Positions 9,556-50,160 are shown, counted from the stretch's first letter. The stretch: DNA of 64,000 bases from a bacterium (GCA_030654225.1 JAURXY010000034.1:25184-89183), one strand, 5' to 3'. The notes: a model not told the origin generated them from the sequence alone. Numbers and translations: made by a program.

Positions 9556-10638
9556 TTAGGATAGAATTTCCTTTATTTCCTCTAAACTCTCCGCCATAAC
9601 TAATTTTCGGCGCAATTCTGAGGCTCCAGGGAAACCTTTGACATACCAACTCATATGCTTTCGAATTTCAAAAAGTCCTTGTTGACCCTTGTTTTTGTGG
9701 ATTAATTTTGCATGAAGAAGCATTATTTTCTTTACCCTGTTAAGTAAATTTTGCTCTGCAAAATTATTTTTCGTAATCGAAAAATACTTAACAGGGTGAA
9801 TTTTTTTAAAATCGTATTTTGCCCCCGTAGAGACGCCCCGACGGGGCGTCTCTACACAATTCAATAATTCTTTTATCTCCTCAAAAATCCACGGCTTACC
9901 CCAAGCGCCCCGGGCAATTCCAAGACCATCCAAAAGAGGATGGTCTTGCAAAATTTTCACGCCATCCTCAGCGGAATTTATCCCACCGTTCGCCAAAACG
10001 ATTTTTTCCGGAAACATTTTTTTGATTTTTTCAACAAGATTGAAATCTAGCGAACCAGAAAACCCACCTTCATATGTTCGACCATGAATCATAATGACCG
10101 AGTAGGGAAGATCAGCTGTGCTTTTGACAAAATCAAGGGCTGAAAATCCTAAAGCCGAGCTTTGAGAATTTTTTAAAAGCTCGGCTTTAGGATTTTCAAT
10201 ACCTGCTCGAATTTTTATAGACACCGGCAATTTGGTATTTTCACAAACAGCCGAAATAATTTCACGCGCCAATTTTTTTTGCATCATTAGCGCGCAACCC
10301 GAACCATGACCAAAAACTTTTTTGGCCGGACAACCAAAATTAATGTCAATTCCATCTGGCTTCACTATTTGCGAAATAATTTTAGTGGCCTTGGCAAAAT
10401 GCGCCGGGTCTTTCCCAAAAAGTTGCACCACGTATGGCCGTTCAGCTCTATTAAATTTTACTAATTCTAAAGTTTTTTGAGGTTTAAAAAATAAAGCGCT
10501 AACGCTTGCCATTTCCGAATATACCACATCCGCTCCATATCGCCGGCAAATTTGACGAAACGCACTGTCCGTTATGCCCGCCATCGGGGCTAGAGCCAGA
10601 ATTGGTTTTTTCAATTTTAACCAAAAATTTTTATTCAC
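9556..10638 (-). CDS. dus: tRNA-dihydrouridine synthase (probable GTG start) with an in-frame palindromic insertion
   Basis: 360 aa; 'LAPMAGITDSAFRQICRRYGADVVYSEM' plus FMN-binding TIM-barrel motifs. The 29-nt perfect palindrome at 9827-9855 encodes extra residues in 'ETPRRGVSTGA'. Confidence 0.9.
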   Translation of the reverse strand: MNKNFWLKLKKPILALAPMAGITDSAFRQICRRYGADVVYSEMASVSALFFKPQKTLELVKFNRAERPYVVQLFGKDPAHFAKATKIISQIVKPDGIDINFGCPAKKVFGHGSGCALMMQKKLAREIISAVCENTKLPVSIKIRAGIENPKAELLKNSQSSALGFSALDFVKSTADLPYSVIMIHGRTYEGGFSGSLDFNLVEKIKKMFPEKIVLANGGINSAEDGVKILQDHPLLDGLGIARGAWGKPWIFEEIKELLNCVETPRRGVSTGAKYDFKKIHPVKYFSITKNNFAEQNLLNRVKKIMLLHAKLIHKNKGQQGLFEIRKHMSWYVKGFPGASELRRKLVMAESLEEIKEILS

Positions 10639-10804
10639 TAATTTTAATGTCTCCCTCAGGAGTTTGTTCTACTTTAAAACCCAAGGCTGCAATAGCTTCT
10701 TTCAGATCCTCTACCTTATCCTCAGCTGACCTATGGATATCACACGCACAAGCATTTTTTTCCACATCCGTCACCTTACATTTTTTTATACAATCATCAG
10801 TCAT
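10634..10804 (-). CDS. Small Cys-rich protein (56 aa), unannotated
   Basis: Read by eye as MTDDCIKKCKVTDVEKNACACDIHRSAEDKVEDLKEAIAALGFKVEQTPEGDIKISE. It fills the cysS-dus gap exactly: it starts 4 nt after the cysS stop and stops 2 nt before the dus start. Confidence 0.4.
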
Positions 10805-21504: not shown

Positions 21505-22236
21505 ATGAATATTTTAGGAGTAAAAGTTGATAATCTCACTAAAAAAGAAATTCTGGAAAAAATCAGAACTTTTTTGACTGAACCAAAATTTCATCAGATC
21601 GCCACTATTAATCCGGAATTTATCTTGGAAACACAGAAAAATTTAGAGTTTAAAAATATTTTGAACACTTGCGATTTGAATGTAGCTGATGGAGTTGGGA
21701 TAAAATTGGCTTTTTGGCGATTTGGAAAAAATTTGAAAACTAGACTTGCTGGCGCAGATTTGATGCTGGAAATTTTGAAAATTGCCCAGACACAAAAATT
21801 TTCAATTTTTTTAGCTGTAAATAAGAATGGTTTGAGTAATTTTGAAGAAACAAAAAAAGCTATATTGAAAATTTATCCTAAATTAGAAATTAATGGGGGA
21901 AATATAGACACAAAAACAGAAGCTAAGCTTCTGTTTGACAGAAGCTTAGCTTCTGTTTTTGGACAGATACTTTTTTGCAACTTCGGCGCCCCGCATCAAG
22001 AACTCTTCATAAATTCACAAAAATGTGATACTATAAGACTAGCCATGGGAGTTGGCGGAAGTTTCGATTTTCTTACCAAAAAAGTCCGTCGCGCTCCGCA
22101 ATTTATGCAAATTATTGGCTTAGAATGGCTCTGGCGAATATTTCAACCGCAAGAATGGAAATTCAAAAAAGAAAGACTTCGAAAAATTTTTCAAGCGGTA
22201 ATAATTTTTCCAATTAAAATAATAATCAACAAATAA
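21505..22236 (+). CDS. WecB/TagA/CpsF-family glycosyltransferase (GT26) with an in-frame palindromic insertion
   Basis: 'MNILGVKVDNLTKKEILEKI' N-terminus is typical of TagA-like enzymes. The palindrome pair at 21917-21957 encodes 'TEAKLLFDRSLASV'. Confidence 0.75.
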   Translation: MNILGVKVDNLTKKEILEKIRTFLTEPKFHQIATINPEFILETQKNLEFKNILNTCDLNVADGVGIKLAFWRFGKNLKTRLAGADLMLEILKIAQTQKFSIFLAVNKNGLSNFEETKKAILKIYPKLEINGGNIDTKTEAKLLFDRSLASVFGQILFCNFGAPHQELFINSQKCDTIRLAMGVGGSFDFLTKKVRRAPQFMQIIGLEWLWRIFQPQEWKFKKERLRKIFQAVIIFPIKIIINK

Positions 22237-28013: not shown

Positions 28014-28092
28014 TGTCATTCCCGTGAAAACGGGAATCTAGTCTCAAATCACTAAGTTTCTACACTAGATTCCCGCCTACGCGGGAATGACA
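28014..28092. mobile_element. MITE-like element, family B (TIR tgtcattcccg / cgggaatgaca), copy 1
   Basis: tgtcattcccgtgaaaacgggaatctagtctcaaatcactaagtttctacactagattcccgcctacgcgggaatgaca; between iscS and iscR. Confidence 0.75.
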
Positions 28093-28096
28093 GAGG

Positions 28097-28501
28097 TTAG
28101 TTTTTTATTAAATCGCTCAATTTTATTCCATACAAAGTTTTTCTAATTTGCTCACCTAATTTTATCCACACGAAACTGGAAGCACATTTTTTCATCGCCG
28201 AGCAATGTATTCCTTGGCATTTGGCTGTCATCGGCCCTTCCATGATCTCAATAATCTCCCCCGCAGAAATTTCTTTCGGTTTTCTCGCCAAGACATACCC
28301 ACCATTTTTTCCTTTGATACTTTTGACTAATCCACTCTTTCGCAAATCACCAATCAATCTTTCCAGATATTTAGCCGAGATTTTTTCTTCTATTGATATC
28401 TCTTTTATATTCTTAATTTGAGGATAATTACGCGCCAAATTAACTATTGCTCGAAGCCCATATTCCCCTTTTGTTGATATCTTTAACATTTGTTTATTCA
28501 T
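28097..28501 (-). CDS. iscR: Rrf2-family transcriptional regulator (IscR-like)
   Basis: 134 aa; wHTH 'KGEYGLRAIVNLA' and C-terminal Cys cluster 'CQGIHCSAMKKC'. Confidence 0.85.
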   Translation of the reverse strand: MNKQMLKISTKGEYGLRAIVNLARNYPQIKNIKEISIEEKISAKYLERLIGDLRKSGLVKSIKGKNGGYVLARKPKEISAGEIIEIMEGPMTAKCQGIHCSAMKKCASSFVWIKLGEQIRKTLYGIKLSDLIKN

Positions 28502-28582
28502 ACTAATTTAGTATGCTTTAATTATAATCTTTTTGAAATAATCTGTCAACAGTGTTATAATTAAAATGTAATTGTAATTTTT

Positions 28583-28662
28583 ATGTCATCCTCGCGAATG
28601 CGGGGATCCAGTCTCAAATCATTAATTTTCTACACTAGATTCCCGCATTCGCGGGAATGACA
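28583..28662. mobile_element. MITE-like element, family B, copy 2
   Basis: tgtcatcctcgcgaatgcggggatccagtctcaaatcattaattttctacactagattcccgcattcgcgggaatgaca. The two copies flank iscR. Confidence 0.75.
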
Positions 28663-28671
28663 AAAATTTTT

Positions 28672-30727: not shown

Positions 30728-30800
30728 TGCTCTGGCAGGGATTTGAACCCCGGACTAAGACATTGACAGTGTCTTGTTCTGACCGCTGAACTACCAGAGC
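30728..30800 (-). tRNA. tRNA-Asp (anticodon GTC)
   Basis: Reverse complement folds as a 73-nt cloverleaf: acceptor GCTCTGG/CCAGAGC, D-arm GTTC/GAAC, anticodon stem AGACA-CTGTCAA-TGTCT, T-arm CGGGG-TTCAAAT-CCCTG, discriminator A. Confidence 0.85.
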
Positions 30801-36128: not shown

Positions 36129-36938
36129 TCAGTTATGTTTTGGCAACGGCTTGCCCCGATATTTCCAAAAATACTTAATCGCACTAGCAATATGAATTCT
36201 AGAAAGTTTATTAAAAAAAAGGAGTTTGAAAATATTTTTACCAGCCGAACTTCTTCTGTGGTAATGATACATTTTAGCGATTGGATAATAAATAACTTTA
36301 TATCCGTTTTCCCAAAAATTTCGACACCAATCAATATCTTCGAAATAATATGTGAACCGCTTATCAATAAGTCCGACCACATCCGCTATTGCACGCCTTG
36401 TCATCATAGCTGATCCCAAAATCCAATCTACCTCCTGTATTTTATTATTATCCACATCTTTCATCAAATAATACTCAAGGTATTTCTTAGCAAACCACAA
36501 TTTTCCTAAAGGAGTTCTGCGATAAAGAATAGTTAGAGGAGTCATAAATCTAAAGCAGGATGTCTGGATAGAATCATTGAAATTAAGAAGTTGTGGTCCA
36601 ACAACACCCACTTCTTGATTATTTTTCATATATTCCAAAAGTTTCTCAATAGAATTTTCCTTGATAATAATATCGTCATTCAGAATGAGAATAAAATCTC
36701 CTGTACTCTCCTTATATCCTCTCCGTACCTCACCTCCAAACCATAAATTTATTTCCGAACTTAAAAATTTTATTTCAGAATAATCCTCTCTCATCATAGT
36801 AGAAATTTCTTCAGTAGTTTCAGAATCTGAAACTACAATTTCATAATCTGATCCGCTATAATTTTTCTTAATCGAATCAATGCAAACTTTCAAGAGTTCC
36901 GGACTTTTATAGCTAGTAATGATGATGGATAATTCCAT
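36129..36938 (-). CDS. Glycosyltransferase family 2
   Basis: 269 aa; 'LSIIITSYK' N-terminus and a DxD-like 'LNDDIII' motif. Confidence 0.75.
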   Translation of the reverse strand: MELSIIITSYKSPELLKVCIDSIKKNYSGSDYEIVVSDSETTEEISTMMREDYSEIKFLSSEINLWFGGEVRRGYKESTGDFILILNDDIIIKENSIEKLLEYMKNNQEVGVVGPQLLNFNDSIQTSCFRFMTPLTILYRRTPLGKLWFAKKYLEYYLMKDVDNNKIQEVDWILGSAMMTRRAIADVVGLIDKRFTYYFEDIDWCRNFWENGYKVIYYPIAKMYHYHRRSSAGKNIFKLLFFNKLSRIHIASAIKYFWKYRGKPLPKHN

Positions 36939-38198: not shown

Positions 38199-39359
38199 TC
38201 AATGACTCATCTGCAAAAAAATTTCTAGCAATTTTTCCGCAGTTTTTTGCCAGGAAAATTTTTCAGCTTGCAACTTTCCATTTTTCGACAAACTATCTCG
38301 CACCATCTCATTGGTCATTATTTCCTTGATTTTTTGGGTCAACTCTCCGGGAATTTCTGGTTTGAAATATAGCGTTGCGTTATCTGCAATTTCTCTGTGT
38401 GGTGGAATATCGGAAACTATGGTTGGCACACCTAGCGACATCGCTTCGATAATTGGCATACCAAAACCTTCATAAAATGAAGGGAACACAAAAATATCCG
38501 CACCTTTGATTATCCCTGCCTTATCTTCTTCATCAATATACCCAGGAAAGAAAACGTCTTCAATTAAATTATTTTTTTTAGTTACTTCATCTATTAATTT
38601 GTCATAATTATACCCCTTACCTCCGGCGATAACTAATTTCAAAGAATTAAGTTTTAACTTTAAGTTGAGTTCGGTTTTTAACAGTGCCACTGCTTCGATA
38701 AGCGCTGGTATATTTTTTCTTGGTTGTAATGTGCCGATATATAGAATGTATCTTTCTGGAAGATTATATTTTATCTTGATTGCTTTTATTTTTTCCTCGG
38801 ATATATCTTGCGTCGAAAAATCCTCTGACACCGCATTATGAAACCAATCAACTTTTTTTGGATCAGTTTTATAATATTTAATTATTTCGTCTTGAGTGAA
38901 TTGGGACACCGCAATTATCTTGTCCGCACGCTTGAGACTTTTTGGAATCAAAGTTTTTAGAAATAACAAATCCCAAAATTTGATAAATTGCGGATAAAAA
39001 TTGAAAGAAATGTCATGAATAATTGTGACGATTTTTATTTTTTTCGGCACGAACCATGGTGTGATATATTGCGTGAGATAAACATCGACTGGTTTTTTTC
39101 GCAAATACATTGGAAGCGTCCAAAAATTCCAACTAAATTTGTTTTTCGTTGGAAGTGAAATTATTTCAAAATTTTTCTGATTATCTATTCCAAGACTTAC
39201 TCCAGTATTCTGTAATACTGTAGTATCAGTTATGTCGGTGAATAATTTATATTCATTCTCACTATCTATTTTAGCTAAATTTTTAGTCAAATTGAAAAAC
39301 ACCGCTTCGCTGCCAGTTTGTTTTTTGCCTATAAGTCGAATGTCAATACCTATTTTCAT
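38199..39359 (-). CDS. Glycosyltransferase family 4
   Basis: 'FPSFYEGFGMPIIEAMSLGVPTIVSD' EX7E motif. Start placed at the internal Met (MKIGIDIR) to avoid overlapping the upstream ORF. Confidence 0.75.
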   Translation of the reverse strand: MKIGIDIRLIGKKQTGSEAVFFNLTKNLAKIDSENEYKLFTDITDTTVLQNTGVSLGIDNQKNFEIISLPTKNKFSWNFWTLPMYLRKKPVDVYLTQYITPWFVPKKIKIVTIIHDISFNFYPQFIKFWDLLFLKTLIPKSLKRADKIIAVSQFTQDEIIKYYKTDPKKVDWFHNAVSEDFSTQDISEEKIKAIKIKYNLPERYILYIGTLQPRKNIPALIEAVALLKTELNLKLKLNSLKLVIAGGKGYNYDKLIDEVTKKNNLIEDVFFPGYIDEEDKAGIIKGADIFVFPSFYEGFGMPIIEAMSLGVPTIVSDIPPHREIADNATLYFKPEIPGELTQKIKEIMTNEMVRDSLSKNGKLQAEKFSWQKTAEKLLEIFLQMSH

Positions 39360-40957
39360 TTTTTTATTTGTGCTATTCCCAGCCAGAGCCAAAAAAATCC
39401 CAAAAATATTCCAGCATTAAAAAAATTGGGAACAATGATCGCAAACCAAGAAATTATTAAAAATAAACTAATAATTATTTGCGAATCATTTTGTGCTGCG
39501 TAATATTCTTTTATCGCTCTACCTAGTATATACGATAGCATAATCACAAAGGACGCAAAACCTAGAATTCCACTGCCAAGCCAAATTTCCAAAAATATAT
39601 TGGAAGAATTGAAGTTCATGCCTCGACCGTCTTCTCCTAAAATTTTCCCAATACTCCCCCAACCTATTCCTAAAATCGGGTGATTTTTTATCTCCTGCCA
39701 AGATCTTTGATAAATAAAGCTTCGAATTGAAATATTTGGATCTTTTCTAAAAATCTCCGTTACTAAATTTCCCTGATTTTTTTCTATTTCAATTTCTTCC
39801 AAGTTAATATGTCGACAACTATATTTTTCCAATTCAGAAATATTTTCAATTTCTTTTGGTAGGGAACGCAAATTTGCGTTCCCTACATTACAGGAAACGG
39901 TGATTTTCTGCATTCCTGATCCGGTTGACTGAACACGATTAAATAATTGGAAATTAGTTAGATGAAAAATATAAACCAGACCAACAGCAACAAAAAGCGC
40001 CGGGACTATAATCAGCTTTATTTTAATAGTTTCCCTCCATTGCCAATTTTTGGGATGGAATTTTAAATTTGTAAAAATAGTGAAAAGAAAAATAAATGTC
40101 ACGGCAAATGCACCGAGCCAAGCGCTTCTGCTTACAGTTAGGATAAGTAAAACATATGAAATAGTAAGTAATAAAAATAAACCGCCCAACAGAAGCTTAG
40201 CTTCGGGAGCTCCCGAAGCTAAGCTTCTGTCTGAGTCTTCGAAGTAATATATCAAAACATAAATTAAACTTATAACTAGCACTATAAAAATTCCCAACCA
40301 ATCCGCCTCCGAAAAAGTCGCATTTGGTCGTCCGGGCATCGTTTCAAAACTATTTAGCCCTCGCAAGAACCAAATATTTTGCCAAATTCCATAAAACACA
40401 ACGACCAAAGAAGAGCTAAGAAAAAATGGCACTACTTTTTTCAAGTCCTCGATATTTTGAATATAATTTCGCACTAAAAAATATAGCGCGGAAAATGTGG
40501 CCAGGATTATCGCCAATTTTAAACTTAAAATTTTATTCGACGCATTTATAATACTAAAAAGTCCGCCGATATTTATTATGACAATTAACCAATCATACCA
40601 TTCCAATTTAACTAATTTGAAATTCAGTTTTCCGGAAAGCAATCTGATTATTATGGCAGTAATTGTGAGTGCGCCGATAAATTGATATGGCCTGATTGCA
40701 ATTCCAAGCTCCAATGGCGCCAGATTGATGTTTTCTAGCGCAATCGTTCCAACAAAAAACAGAAACGCCCACCCAGGACGGTATAGCGCCAAAAACAAAG
40801 TCAGAATTGCAAAGAAAACAAAATCCCCTATTCGCAAAGGAATAATCCCTAAATTATTAAAAATAATCAAAAATAAAACTAAAGCCACATTCACCAAAAT
40901 CAACCAGCTCTTTGGTTTGTTGAGGTTATTAATTATTTTTTCAAAAAATAAATTCAT
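39356..40957 (-). CDS. O-antigen ligase/polymerase-like polytopic membrane protein (Wzy/WaaL family) with two in-frame palindromic insertions
   Basis: 533 aa with at least 10 TM helices and a large periplasmic loop. Palindromes at 39860-39887 and 40189-40238 are in-frame. Confidence 0.55.
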   Translation of the reverse strand: MNLFFEKIINNLNKPKSWLILVNVALVLFLIIFNNLGIIPLRIGDFVFFAILTLFLALYRPGWAFLFFVGTIALENINLAPLELGIAIRPYQFIGALTITAIIIRLLSGKLNFKLVKLEWYDWLIVIINIGGLFSIINASNKILSLKLAIILATFSALYFLVRNYIQNIEDLKKVVPFFLSSSLVVVFYGIWQNIWFLRGLNSFETMPGRPNATFSEADWLGIFIVLVISLIYVLIYYFEDSDRSLASGAPEAKLLLGGLFLLLTISYVLLILTVSRSAWLGAFAVTFIFLFTIFTNLKFHPKNWQWRETIKIKLIIVPALFVAVGLVYIFHLTNFQLFNRVQSTGSGMQKITVSCNVGNANLRSLPKEIENISELEKYSCRHINLEEIEIEKNQGNLVTEIFRKDPNISIRSFIYQRSWQEIKNHPILGIGWGSIGKILGEDGRGMNFNSSNIFLEIWLGSGILGFASFVIMLSYILGRAIKEYYAAQNDSQIIISLFLIISWFAIIVPNFFNAGIFLGFFWLWLGIAQIKK

Positions 40958-44636: not shown

Positions 44637-46595
44637 ATGTTAAATTTTATTTACAGTCAAATTTTATTTTATATATCTATTTTAGTAATTCTGTTTGTCC
44701 CAGGATATTTTTTGCTTTTGGCGGTTTTTGGTAAATATGAAAATCAGATAAGTAAATTAGAAAGATTTATTTTTTCTTTTGGATTAAGTTTAATCGTTGT
44801 TGATTTTATCGCTTTTGCTTATTCCAAACTAAACGTTCCGATTACTGCCCTCTCTTCAATTTTGGGGGTACTGTTTTTTGCCATAATTTGCCTTGCATTT
44901 AGACACTGGGTGTCTAAAAAGACACCCAGTGTCTCTGTAGGCATTCAAGAAGAAGATAAATTATTTTCTTTTTCCAAAAATCAATTTCTCCTCCTTTTGC
45001 TTCTTTTGTTTTTGACAATTTTTATTAAAACTGCCTATCTCAGTGGAACAGTTGCCCCAACTGCCACTGACATGGGTCATCACACCTATTGGGCTAAAGA
45101 AATGTCCACCACTCACAAACTTCCTGTTTATGAAGGAATGCCTGATTTTATCATTGGTGAACATATTGCTTTGTCAGAGATAAATATGATCAGTGGAAAA
45201 AGTTTCTTTTCAGCTTTCCCGGTTATTTTTTTGCTACTGATTAATCTTCTTAGTATCCTCACTGTTTTTATCTTGACTTTACGAATTTTCAAAAACAAGA
45301 ATGTTGCTATTCTTTCAATTCTTTTTTTGGGAGTTCTTTTTGCTGTTTCCTCACCTCAGGCTAAATTTGTTAGTGGTGGTGTAATAGGAAATATCTTGGG
45401 AAATCTTCTGATGCCTATGGCCTTTTATTTTTATTTCAGAGCTACAGAATTTCTAAATGTAGGGGTTCAATTTATTGAACCCACTAATAAACCGATTGGG
45501 TTTGATAAATCAAACCCCTACATTTTAAATGATAGTCAGAAATTTCTTTCCCTTGGAATTTTTTCCACTTTCGGACTTTTTTATACGCATCATCTCACTG
45601 CTTTTATATTTTTATTTATTTTTTCCTTACTTATTATTATTTTCCTAGCTCTAAATTACAAAGACCTGAAAAATATTTTTGGAAAAATATTTGATTTGGT
45701 TTTTTCCGTTCCTGTTATCACAACTTTTGCAGTCGGATTGATTTTTTTCTTTTTTATTTTCACTCCAAATTATATGCAGACTAGTGCGGTAGAAACCGCT
45801 GTCGGCACACCCTCAAAAGCCACTCGCGAAGGATTGAGTATGGACAACATAAAATCTTCCGTGGGCGAAGTTCGTCTGGCTCTTGGATTTTTAGGACTTC
45901 TGATTTTATCTTTGAATTATAAAAGAAAAAATTTCGGCTTCACTTTGATTTCTGCTTGGACAGTTATGCTTTTTATCATGTCCACTAAACCAGAATTAAT
46001 TTTCATCAACTTGCCTAGTTCTCGAATTGGAAATTATATGAGCTATCCCCTTGCCATCCTTTCTGCCTATGGATTATTTTCTATTTTCAATCCCAGTTTA
46101 GTTGATTCAAAAAAAATAATTCCCAAGAAATTTCTAGCTGGCTCATTTTTGATTATCCTAATTTTTGTTTTAACTAGCGGGATAAGCGACAGCGTTCAAG
46201 CTTTCAAAAAAGCCCCTGACTTCACTCCCGTTATTGAAACTTATGACGCTTCTAATTATTTAGTGAAAAATACTAACGAGGAAGATGTGATTCTAAAAGA
46301 TCATAATTATATCACTGCAGATTCTTGGATAAAATTGTTTTTTATGCAAGGTTATAGATACCCTCAGTCTCGTGGCTATTTCAAGCGTTATGAAGATCCC
46401 ACTAAACCTCGTGAAATGTGCACCCTCTATATGATTTCCAATCCGGCCGGTCAAGACGCCCAGGATTGTTTTTTTGAAACAAAAACTAATTATATTTTGG
46501 TTAATCCAAAATTTGATAGCTCCCAATTTGTAAAACTCAAAAATTTTAGCAAAGTTTATAACAATGGCGATGTAGCTGTTTATTATAAAAAATAA
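44637..46595 (+). CDS. Large polytopic membrane protein, possibly a third GT-C-type glycosyltransferase
   Basis: 652 aa; about 12 TM helices then a soluble C-terminal domain. Conserved-looking loop 'TATDMGHHTYWAKEM'. Confidence 0.45.
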   Translation: MLNFIYSQILFYISILVILFVPGYFLLLAVFGKYENQISKLERFIFSFGLSLIVVDFIAFAYSKLNVPITALSSILGVLFFAIICLAFRHWVSKKTPSVSVGIQEEDKLFSFSKNQFLLLLLLLFLTIFIKTAYLSGTVAPTATDMGHHTYWAKEMSTTHKLPVYEGMPDFIIGEHIALSEINMISGKSFFSAFPVIFLLLINLLSILTVFILTLRIFKNKNVAILSILFLGVLFAVSSPQAKFVSGGVIGNILGNLLMPMAFYFYFRATEFLNVGVQFIEPTNKPIGFDKSNPYILNDSQKFLSLGIFSTFGLFYTHHLTAFIFLFIFSLLIIIFLALNYKDLKNIFGKIFDLVFSVPVITTFAVGLIFFFFIFTPNYMQTSAVETAVGTPSKATREGLSMDNIKSSVGEVRLALGFLGLLILSLNYKRKNFGFTLISAWTVMLFIMSTKPELIFINLPSSRIGNYMSYPLAILSAYGLFSIFNPSLVDSKKIIPKKFLAGSFLIILIFVLTSGISDSVQAFKKAPDFTPVIETYDASNYLVKNTNEEDVILKDHNYITADSWIKLFFMQGYRYPQSRGYFKRYEDPTKPREMCTLYMISNPAGQDAQDCFFETKTNYILVNPKFDSSQFVKLKNFSKVYNNGDVAVYYKK

Positions 46596-49575: not shown

Positions 49576-50160
49576 ATGAAACTAATCACAATTTCTGGTC
49601 TTGATGGCTCAGGGAAATCAACTCAAATTGAAATGCTAAAAAAGCATTTAGAATCGCAAAGTAAGCGGGTTTTTTATTTTCATGCTGGGCAATTTAGTAT
49701 TAGTAAGATTTATAATATTTTAAGACCACACAAGATTATTACTGGCAAACATCATGAAAGCGTGGTCAAAGCTAATGTTTTTCAAATTTATCTTCGTCGT
49801 TTTGCATTACTGATAGATTTGGTGCGCTTTAAGTTATTACATAATAAATTACGTAATAAAAATTATGATTATATTTTGAGTGACCGGTATTTTTATGATA
49901 GTGTGGTTAATATTGAATTTTTATGTAGGGAACGCATATATGCGTTCCCTACGTGGATTGTAAATCCCGATTTGGCAATCTATCTTCAAACTGATCCGGA
50001 AATAATAATGCAAAGAGAAAGAAAGCCTGATCAAGGAATTGATTATCTCAAAAAGAAAAAAAATATATATGACGCAAAAATTCTCGATTGGAATATGAAA
50101 CTAATTAATGGCAATCGAGGCCAAGAAGAAATTTTTAAAGAAATAAAATCATTTTTATGA
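49576..50160 (+). CDS. tmk: Thymidylate kinase-like P-loop kinase with an in-frame palindromic insertion
   Basis: 194 aa; 'ISGLDGSGKSTQ' P-loop and 'LSDRYFYDS' DRY motif. The palindrome at 49925-49952 encodes 'RERIYAFP'. Confidence 0.6.
   Translation: MKLITISGLDGSGKSTQIEMLKKHLESQSKRVFYFHAGQFSISKIYNILRPHKIITGKHHESVVKANVFQIYLRRFALLIDLVRFKLLHNKLRNKNYDYILSDRYFYDSVVNIEFLCRERIYAFPTWIVNPDLAIYLQTDPEIIMQRERKPDQGIDYLKKKKNIYDAKILDWNMKLINGNRGQEEIFKEIKSFL

Follow-up and report, generated by a model that had tools for sequence, protein, structure and literature searches.

The dus gene of a Candidatus Moranbacteria genome (CPR/Patescibacteria) contains a perfect 29-nt palindrome that is present in only a few close relatives, belongs by its sequence to a dispersed repeat family, and is linked through that family to genes for RAYT proteins. 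This palindrome is probably a solo double-foot REP that is cognate to RAYT/TnpA_REP subclass 2.4, would have been mobilized by such an enzyme, and is tolerated in a permissive linker. We analyzed a 64-kb stretch of DNA (the window). The closest homologs of its Dus protein also come from Candidatus Moranbacteria. Below, P numbers refer to Dus homologs and L numbers refer to genomic or metagenomic loci.

The palindrome and the Dus linker

The host gene and the palindrome are:

9556..10638, minus strand: dus, tRNA-dihydrouridine synthase (Pfam Dus PF01207, E = 1.6e-61)
9827..9855, unstranded: probable double-foot REP, made of GTAGAGACG (the foot), CCCCG (the top), A, CGGGG, and CGTCTCTAC

The 29-mer (GTAGAGACGCCCCGACGGGGCGTCTCTAC) has two fully complementary 14-nt arms around a single base (GTAGAGACGCCCCG-A-CGGGGCGTCTCTAC). 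It begins with GTAG (9827-9830) and ends with CTAC (9852-9855), which is the arrangement of a double-foot REP. Its GC content is 69%, versus ~35% for the whole window. A sequence-only reading of the window had described a perfect 14-bp inverted repeat around one base, with CGTCTC/GAGACG in its arms, lying in frame within dus, and the sequence agrees on each point: on the minus strand, the palindrome reads as VETPRRGVST (amino acids 262-271 of dus), followed by GA, and the frame of the 9556-10638 ORF is unbroken. The same reading had seen no second copy in the window. This is correct for the sequence itself, as we found no other copy in the 64 kb while allowing up to 3 mismatches in the 18 foot bases, but not for the architecture: four GTAG...CTAC palindromes of different sequence lie within other genes of the window.

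Chance does not explain the palindrome, because such hairpins are too frequent in the window and the fold is too stable. The window contains 8 perfect hairpins with a stem of at least 14 bp and a loop of up to 8, versus 0.025 expected from 40 first-order Markov simulations. With the threshold lowered to 12 bp, the window has 11 hairpins and the simulations give 0.225. As single-stranded DNA, the palindrome folds at about -16 kcal/mol (z of about -6.4), which none of 200 shuffles equaled and which fits a long-stem REP.

We considered several other kinds of element and rejected them. An intrinsic terminator does not fit, as neither strand has a terminator call at 9827-9855, the element is in the middle of a gene, and the reading frame continues through it. 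A CRISPR repeat does not fit a single copy in the window, and at loci with several copies, the spacing is irregular (~80 nt to ~3 kb; L009 and L072). MITEs are 70-300 bp long with terminal inverted repeats and a target site duplication, while this element has 29 nt, no internal non-repeat core, and no visible duplication of its flanks. A reading of the palindrome as a restriction site was also rejected.

The palindrome lies in the Dus linker that joins the TIM barrel to the C-terminal helical domain. The dus product has 360 amino acids if counted from GTG, or 352 from ATG, which is the start used in P0001 (the window's protein). In an AlphaFold (AF2) model of moderate quality (mean pLDDT of 68), residues 261-295 are coil with pLDDT below 50, flanked by the last barrel-associated helix (250-260) and by the long helix of the C-terminal domain (293-332). 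Between cysS and dus, the minus strand has a 57-amino-acid ORF (10631-10804). Gene calls of 56-64 amino acids are found at the same place in L002, L004, L005, and L006, and the ORF appears to encode a conserved small protein without an assigned function.

To compare the linker across relatives, we took the stretch between GxPWIF and IKKIML, which gave 81 measurable linkers among the closest 120 homologs. The bare linker has 19 amino acids and is found in 14 of the 81; 65 of the 81 are longer. Among the closest 120 homologs, only P0001, P0003, P0004, and P0021 carry VETPRRGVST, and a few other orthologs have variants or remnants of it at the same spot. Thus, the VETPRRGVST segment is a lineage-specific insert in the dus linker. 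An alignment of Dus homologs had been proposed along with the sequence-only reading, and its outcome supports the view taken there of a palindromic insertion that is tolerated in a housekeeping enzyme, as the segment is absent from most Dus homologs.

The locus of P0003 (L001, GCA_003512165.1), which was assembled independently, is syntenic with the window. The 29-mer recurs there at the same dus codon (L001:10739-10767) and is identical except for its center base, which is flipped. In DNA-level alignments of dus, we did not find the palindrome in L003, L005, or L006. Since the window's source is a metagenome-assembled genome, one might suspect an assembly or sequencing artifact, such as a chimeric junction or an adapter. 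However, the same insert is found at the same site in independent sources (L001, P0004 from JGI, and P0021 from ENA), isolate and complete genomes also contain the repeat family, and the reading frame is intact. We see practically no chance of an artifact.

At the same site, L002 (GCA_049303905.1, whose dus is 84% identical) has GCAGAGACG-AGGCA-C-TGCCT-CGTCTCTAC: the foot is kept and the five inner pairs are replaced, yet they are still paired. Other orthologs have the linker variants VETLRRSVST, CRDEACLVST, or RNALQCVST, or decayed remnants (CVET-NYDF, NRVST, or NRVPT). In most of the carriers and variants, the 3' foot is two to three codons ahead of the conserved YDF. The swapped top in L002 is not explained by one simple insertion. 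Further points against the REP reading are that a 29-nt unit alone cannot preserve the reading frame and that the window has a single copy of this subfamily. The variant tops could have come from reinsertion at a hot spot, from the substitution of a new REP for an old one, or from evolution in place under a pairing constraint.

These variants also bear on whether VETPRRGVST is a functional peptide of a Dus subfamily, kept by selection, with the DNA palindrome as a by-product. Four close homologs retain the segment, and it is read in frame, as this explanation would have it. However, AETRHCLVST, VETLRRSVST, and CRDEACLVST keep the DNA pairing and not the peptide, and elsewhere the same DNA is read in another frame (as RDAPxGRLY) and is mostly outside of genes. 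A selected peptide is therefore very unlikely.

A different possibility is that the hairpin is kept because it serves dus as RNA or DNA: it might pause translation at the domain boundary, be cut by an RNase, stabilize the mRNA, or be bound by gyrase or another protein. The element would then be a REP that has been domesticated, not a neutral passenger. In favor of this, the hairpin is highly stable, it lies exactly at the domain boundary, and its pairing in L002 is perfect despite the different top. Also, between the window and L001, the loop base is the only difference within the 29-mer, versus differences at 13.5% of positions across dus. However, one change or fewer in 29 nt at 13.5% divergence has p ~ 0.08 (binomial estimate), which is not significant. 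Most of the orthologs lack the hairpin or have unrelated inserts or decayed remnants, which shows that dus does not need it. Given this, and because the hairpin has no T-tract, no terminator call at 9827-9855, and no match in Rfam, we consider a functional role in dus to be unlikely.

If the element is instead a passenger REP, as we favor, then the Dus linker, which in close relatives may carry the hairpin, lack it, or hold a variant or a remnant of it, is a natural series for the entry, change, and decay of a hairpin.

The repeat family and its RAYT genes

To find related elements, we scanned species-representative genomes for GTAGAGACG-N7-15-CGTCTCTAC, so that the 9-base foot is fixed by the pattern itself. 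The pattern is found at 120 loci or more. The exact 29-mer, with any center base, is found in at least 120 metagenome contigs whose GC content ranges from 32 to 75%, compared to one copy in the window. The foot matches listed include Bacteroidota, Cyanobacteria (mainly Nostocales), Chloroflexota, Acidobacteriota, Planctomycetota, Desulfuromonadota, Ignavibacteria, Zixibacteria, Omnitrophota, Spirochaetota, Patescibacteria, and Gracilibacteria. Some of the matches are in isolate or complete genomes, such as Calothrix PCC 7716, Parabacteroides distasonis, and Flavobacterium. Work on small dispersed repeats in Nostoc, reportedly by Elhai et al. in 2008, possibly covers the cyanobacterial copies. 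Among the matches listed, the five inner pairs vary widely between copies, yet they are perfectly complementary in most of them.

This distribution also decides whether the palindrome could have arisen in place, by chance or by a local template-switch (quasi-palindrome) mutation, outside of any repeat family. Its sequence is present just once in the window, as an origin in place would predict. But stems of 14 bp or more are expected only 0.025 times per window. The explanation is refuted by the identical 29-mers that lie in RAYT genes and in at least 120 metagenome contigs unrelated to one another, and we give it almost no credence. By its sequence, the palindrome is instead taken to be a copy of a widely dispersed REP family.

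The family is mainly extragenic, like other REPs: among the matches listed from species-representative genomes, just 22 of 117 copies are in long ORFs, versus 75% of random positions. The bases flanking 122 copies pair no more often than expected by chance (21%), which places the ends of the unit exactly at GTAG and CTAC. The 29-mer has two frames that are open on both strands (VETPRRGVST and RDAPxGRLY), while the third contains TAG. Low-GC contigs have in-frame copies of this 29-mer in the genes for an RsmI-type methylase (rsmI), UvrB (uvrB), and KsgA (ksgA), and in a Patescibacteria MAG it lies 10 nt past the stop codon of rplL. We had thought that copies in CPR might be mostly intragenic, and we dropped this idea because only about a third of the low-GC contigs with the 29-mer have it in a long ORF (by a hand count). 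In the same hand count of the matches listed, several of these long ORFs were RAYT genes.

The UvrB from one low-GC metagenome contig (L136:26-2248) contains a second element-like insert, VIASIAKQSRN...EIATVATLPRNDN, beside VETPRRGVST. It resembles the TGTCATTGCGAG-type palindromes of CPR genes.

In the literature, the string GTAGAGACG gave matches only to primers and Alu sequences. That this foot is common across phyla, with freely varying tops, is our observation, and we found no statement of it in Quentin et al. 2018.

To look for an associated protein family, we clustered the ORFs from the foot-matching loci and then searched the loci with an HMM of the resulting family. Its members share the pattern KYRIxSxRLxxWDY ... 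MPNHxHGI ... SLGSIIxQFKS ... WQxRFxDHIIR ... YIxNNPxKW. A RAYT-like gene of this family lies beside or around the palindrome in 6 of the 120 genome loci listed (all six are Bacteroidota), and in 16 of the 120 metagenome contigs listed, the palindrome is within or adjoins such a gene. In the 12 metagenome loci that align in one piece, a copy of the palindrome is inside the ORF, at a fixed place just after the HuH strand. In L208, the RAYT-like gene is split into two ORFs, with its internal palindrome at the same place. Among these 12 loci and L208, two of the internal copies are degenerate. More broadly, 116 of the 120 best homologs of one RAYT have a segment of the VETxxxxVST or VETxxxASLQ type after HuH, often as partial tandem copies.

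Several lines of evidence indicate that these proteins are RAYTs. Some of the homologs are named "REP element-mobilizing transposase RayT" by their sources. The proteins match NF047646 from NCBIfam (REP-associated tyrosine transposase) with E values of 1e-15 to 1e-19, which is below its equivalog cutoff, and they have sub-threshold matches to Y1_Tnp from Pfam (21 bits vs. a cutoff of 23). A profile search of the PDB with the family had one match, to TnpA_REP from E. coli (4ER8, E = 4.8e-7), while a search of the PDB with a single sequence had none. Finally, Quentin, Siguier, Chandler, and Fichant (2018, PMC6006769) defined TnpA_REP subclass 2.4, which is the same as Bertels group 4; its proteins have a median of 194 amino acids and contain the motifs NH[IFV]H, WQ, and YIxNNP. 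Judging by NHxH, WQ, and YIxNNP, our family matches subclass 2.4.

In a Patescibacteria MAG (L247), the RAYT-like gene is a single gene among housekeeping genes, between merR/uvrA and fbp. Its internal palindrome is GTAGAGACGCCCCAATGGGGCGTCTCTAC, and a related intergenic copy lies 7 kb away. With the HMM, neither the 64-kb window nor any of the loci L001-L006 from relatives gave a RAYT-like gene, so the palindrome may be a relic in this genome.

The subclass 2.4 genes (in L026, L088, L119, L197, L177, L243, and others) often encode several partial tandem copies of their REP-derived peptide, such as VETPRRGVETSRRRVETPRRG..., which suggests that the hairpin is amplified locally or slips inside the transposase gene.

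How might the palindrome have reached dus? The mobile unit would be a hairpin repeat of 28-29 nt in which each strand begins with GTAG, and the subclass 2.4 RAYT/TnpA_REP proteins would act as tyrosine (HuH-Y1) transposases. The hairpin would form in single-stranded DNA, where a subclass 2.4 RAYT presumably binds and cleaves it. By cutting and rejoining the hairpin at the GTAG foot, the RAYT could spread copies around the genome. One copy may then have landed in, or have been exchanged into, the dus of a Moranbacteria lineage. Intragenic copies would survive only where they leave the reading frame open and where the protein can accommodate ten more residues. With two open frames in the repeat and a disordered, length-tolerant linker, the dus copy would be translated as ten extra residues at little cost. 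We infer that a RAYT mobilized the element in this genome, that the insert is translated, and that it is neutral. For the E. coli RAYT, cleavage and joining of REPs in vitro were reportedly described by Ton-Hoang et al. and by Messing et al. in 2012. To our knowledge, the E. coli enzyme, a member of another subclass, is the only RAYT with these demonstrated activities, and no RAYT is known to transpose single REPs.

Other palindromic elements in the window

Besides the 29-mer, we identified these elements:

9733..9798, minus strand: 66-nt inverted-repeat element in the dus linker, with arms CACCCTGTTAAGTA / TACTTAACAGGGTG, in frame as HPVKYFSITKNNFAEQNLLNRV
10141..10198, minus strand: 58-nt near-perfect palindrome in dus, after the IKIRAG strand, with 28-nt arms that are 93% complementary, in frame as IENPKAELLKNSQSSALGFS
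36814..36836, unstranded: short double-foot palindrome GTAGTTTCAGAATCTGAAACTAC, in frame as VVSDSETT, in a family-2 glycosyltransferase (36129-36938, minus strand)
39859..39886, unstranded: double-foot palindrome GTAGGGAACGCAAATTTGCGTTCCCTAC, in frame as VGNANLRSLP, in a Wzy_C-family membrane protein (39356-40957, minus strand)
45455..45525 (more narrowly 45459..45521), unstranded: composite GTAG...CTAC element (GTAGGGGTTCAATTTATTGAACCC ... GGGTTTGATAAATCAAACCCCTAC) within the gene for a large membrane protein (44637-46595, plus strand), in frame as NVGVQFIEPTNKPIGFDKSNPY
49925..49952, unstranded: double-foot palindrome GTAGGGAACGCATATATGCGTTCCCTAC, in frame as CRERIYAFPT, in thymidylate kinase (49576-50160, plus strand)

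Two of these are in dus itself. The 66-nt element is in the same linker as the palindrome, 27 nt downstream of it, and is unrelated to it in sequence. It is absent from L001 and present in P0002, P0005, P0007, P0009, and P0010. Because P0002, P0005, and P0011 have a further copy at another site of dus, it represents a separate family of mobile elements. The 58-nt palindrome is a net insertion of 45 nt that is absent from L001, L002, L003, L005, and L006 (by DNA alignment), and other orthologs have different inserts at the same loop.

The palindromes in the Wzy_C-family protein and in thymidylate kinase belong to one other double-foot subfamily (GTAGGGAACGCA..TGCGTTCCCTAC) and are read in different frames. 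A peptide of the same type as the thymidylate kinase insert (CRERIYAFQKK) is found in the Dus linker of P0081. The peptide encoded by the composite element fills the Dus linker in P0011, P0012, P0014, P0031, P0038, P0065, and P0071. These are seven other Moranbacteria orthologs, and the shared peptide is direct evidence that the composite element moves between genes. The palindrome in the family-2 glycosyltransferase is a weaker case and could be due to chance or be native to the gene.

The window also has palindromes of other kinds. The membrane protein with the composite element contains another perfect palindrome with 15-bp arms, AGACACTGGGTGTCT-AAAA-AGACACCCAGTGTCT (44901-44934, in frame as RHWVSKKTPSVS). 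Two perfect palindromes with the common arm ACAGAAGCTTAGCTTC represent another repeat family, without GTAG feet: one has 24-bp arms (21911-21961) and is in frame in a WecG-family glycosyltransferase (TKTEAKLLFDRSLASVFG), and the other has 21-bp arms (40189-40230) and is in frame in the Wzy_C protein (DRSLASGAPEAKLLL). Between the genes for a class-V aminotransferase and a PD-(D/E)XK nuclease, a pair of intergenic composite palindromes (28014-28092 and 28580-28666, with arms TGTCATTCCCG...CGGGAATGACA) brackets the gene for an Rrf2-family regulator (28097-28501). Related sequences, TGTCATTGCGAG...CTCGCAATGACA, fill the Dus linker of P0006 (L004). The sole match to Rfam in the window is a tRNA gene at 30728-30800 on the minus strand.

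It is tempting to generalize that in Moranbacteria, and perhaps in CPR bacteria as a whole, double-foot REPs and small palindromes are a major and ongoing source of lineage-specific insertions, and that resident intragenic REPs are actively overwritten. This idea comes from the many different element-derived inserts of the Dus linker, with 65 of 81 linkers exceeding the 19-residue baseline, and from the foot that, at one fixed spot, is shared by wholly different tops that still pair perfectly. We consider it doubtful. If it is true, then RAYTs would catalyze the exchange of hairpins between feet, and intragenic REPs would track the REP that is in the genome's own RAYT gene.

Comparison to known repeats

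The dus element is not a Rickettsia palindromic element (RPE), as it has 29 nt, is found in Moranbacteria, and has a different sequence; it is RPE-like only in being an in-frame passenger. RPE-1 elements are ~100-150 bp long, are known only from Rickettsia, are unrelated in sequence to the dus palindrome, and are not known to have a linked RAYT. The likeness is that RPEs, as reported by Ogata et al. 2000 (cited in PMC3733652), are also palindromic repeats that have entered housekeeping genes in frame, in a bacterium with a small genome, and that are translated as surface loops.

The REPINs and classical REPs of Pseudomonas and E. coli (Bertels and Rainey 2011, PMC3116915) are also dispersed hairpins, tagged by GTAG, non-autonomous, and associated with a single-copy RAYT. 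However, a REPIN consists of a pair of imperfect REPs and nearly always lies outside of genes, whereas the dus element is single and perfectly symmetric.

Closer in context are the intragenic REPs with GTAG or CGTC tags that were described by Di Nocera, De Gregorio, and Rocco (2013, PMC3733652). They are likewise short hairpins, in frame in known protein genes, including uvrA, uvrB, recB, and RNA-modification genes, and the authors argued that such insertions are tolerated in linkers or loops. In those REPs, GTAG is an unpaired tail at one end, while in the dus element it is paired with CTAC. Their hosts are mainly Opitutus terrae, Rickettsia conorii, and Proteobacteria, as compared to Moranbacteria here, and the sequence of the dus palindrome is not in the supplementary tables of that paper.

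The closest match is to the REPs of subclass 2.4, as described in PMC6006769. [quoted passage not shown] Two kinds of REP are cognate to it: canonical long REPs and "double foot" REPs, the latter having 5' GT[AG]G and 3' C[TC]AC. The same paper describes REPs in frame inside the tnpA_REP gene, as well as REPs in unrelated genes, and proposes that a single symmetric unit could stem from a REP dimer by a central deletion. As far as the literature cited there indicates, RAYT cleavage has been tested only for the E. coli enzyme, from another subclass. Our element resembles the double-foot REPs in having paired GTAG/CTAC feet on a long perfect hairpin and in the distribution of its family (Cyanobacteria, Bacteroidetes, and scattered phyla). 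It differs in that it stands alone, in a gene for tRNA modification from a CPR bacterium, and in that no cognate RAYT was seen within the 64-kb window.

As a passenger REP of an already described type, the GC-rich palindrome in a housekeeping gene would be explained without a new mechanism. VETPRRGVST, RDAPxGRLY, and VETHGRASLQ in predicted proteins would then be footprints of the repeat rather than functional motifs, and such REP-encoded peptides would inflate the variation in protein length in CPR genomes. This kind of event is already known. The host lineage (CPR) is new, as we found no prior description of such elements there, and the recorded hosts of double-foot and intragenic REPs are thereby widened to the Patescibacteria.
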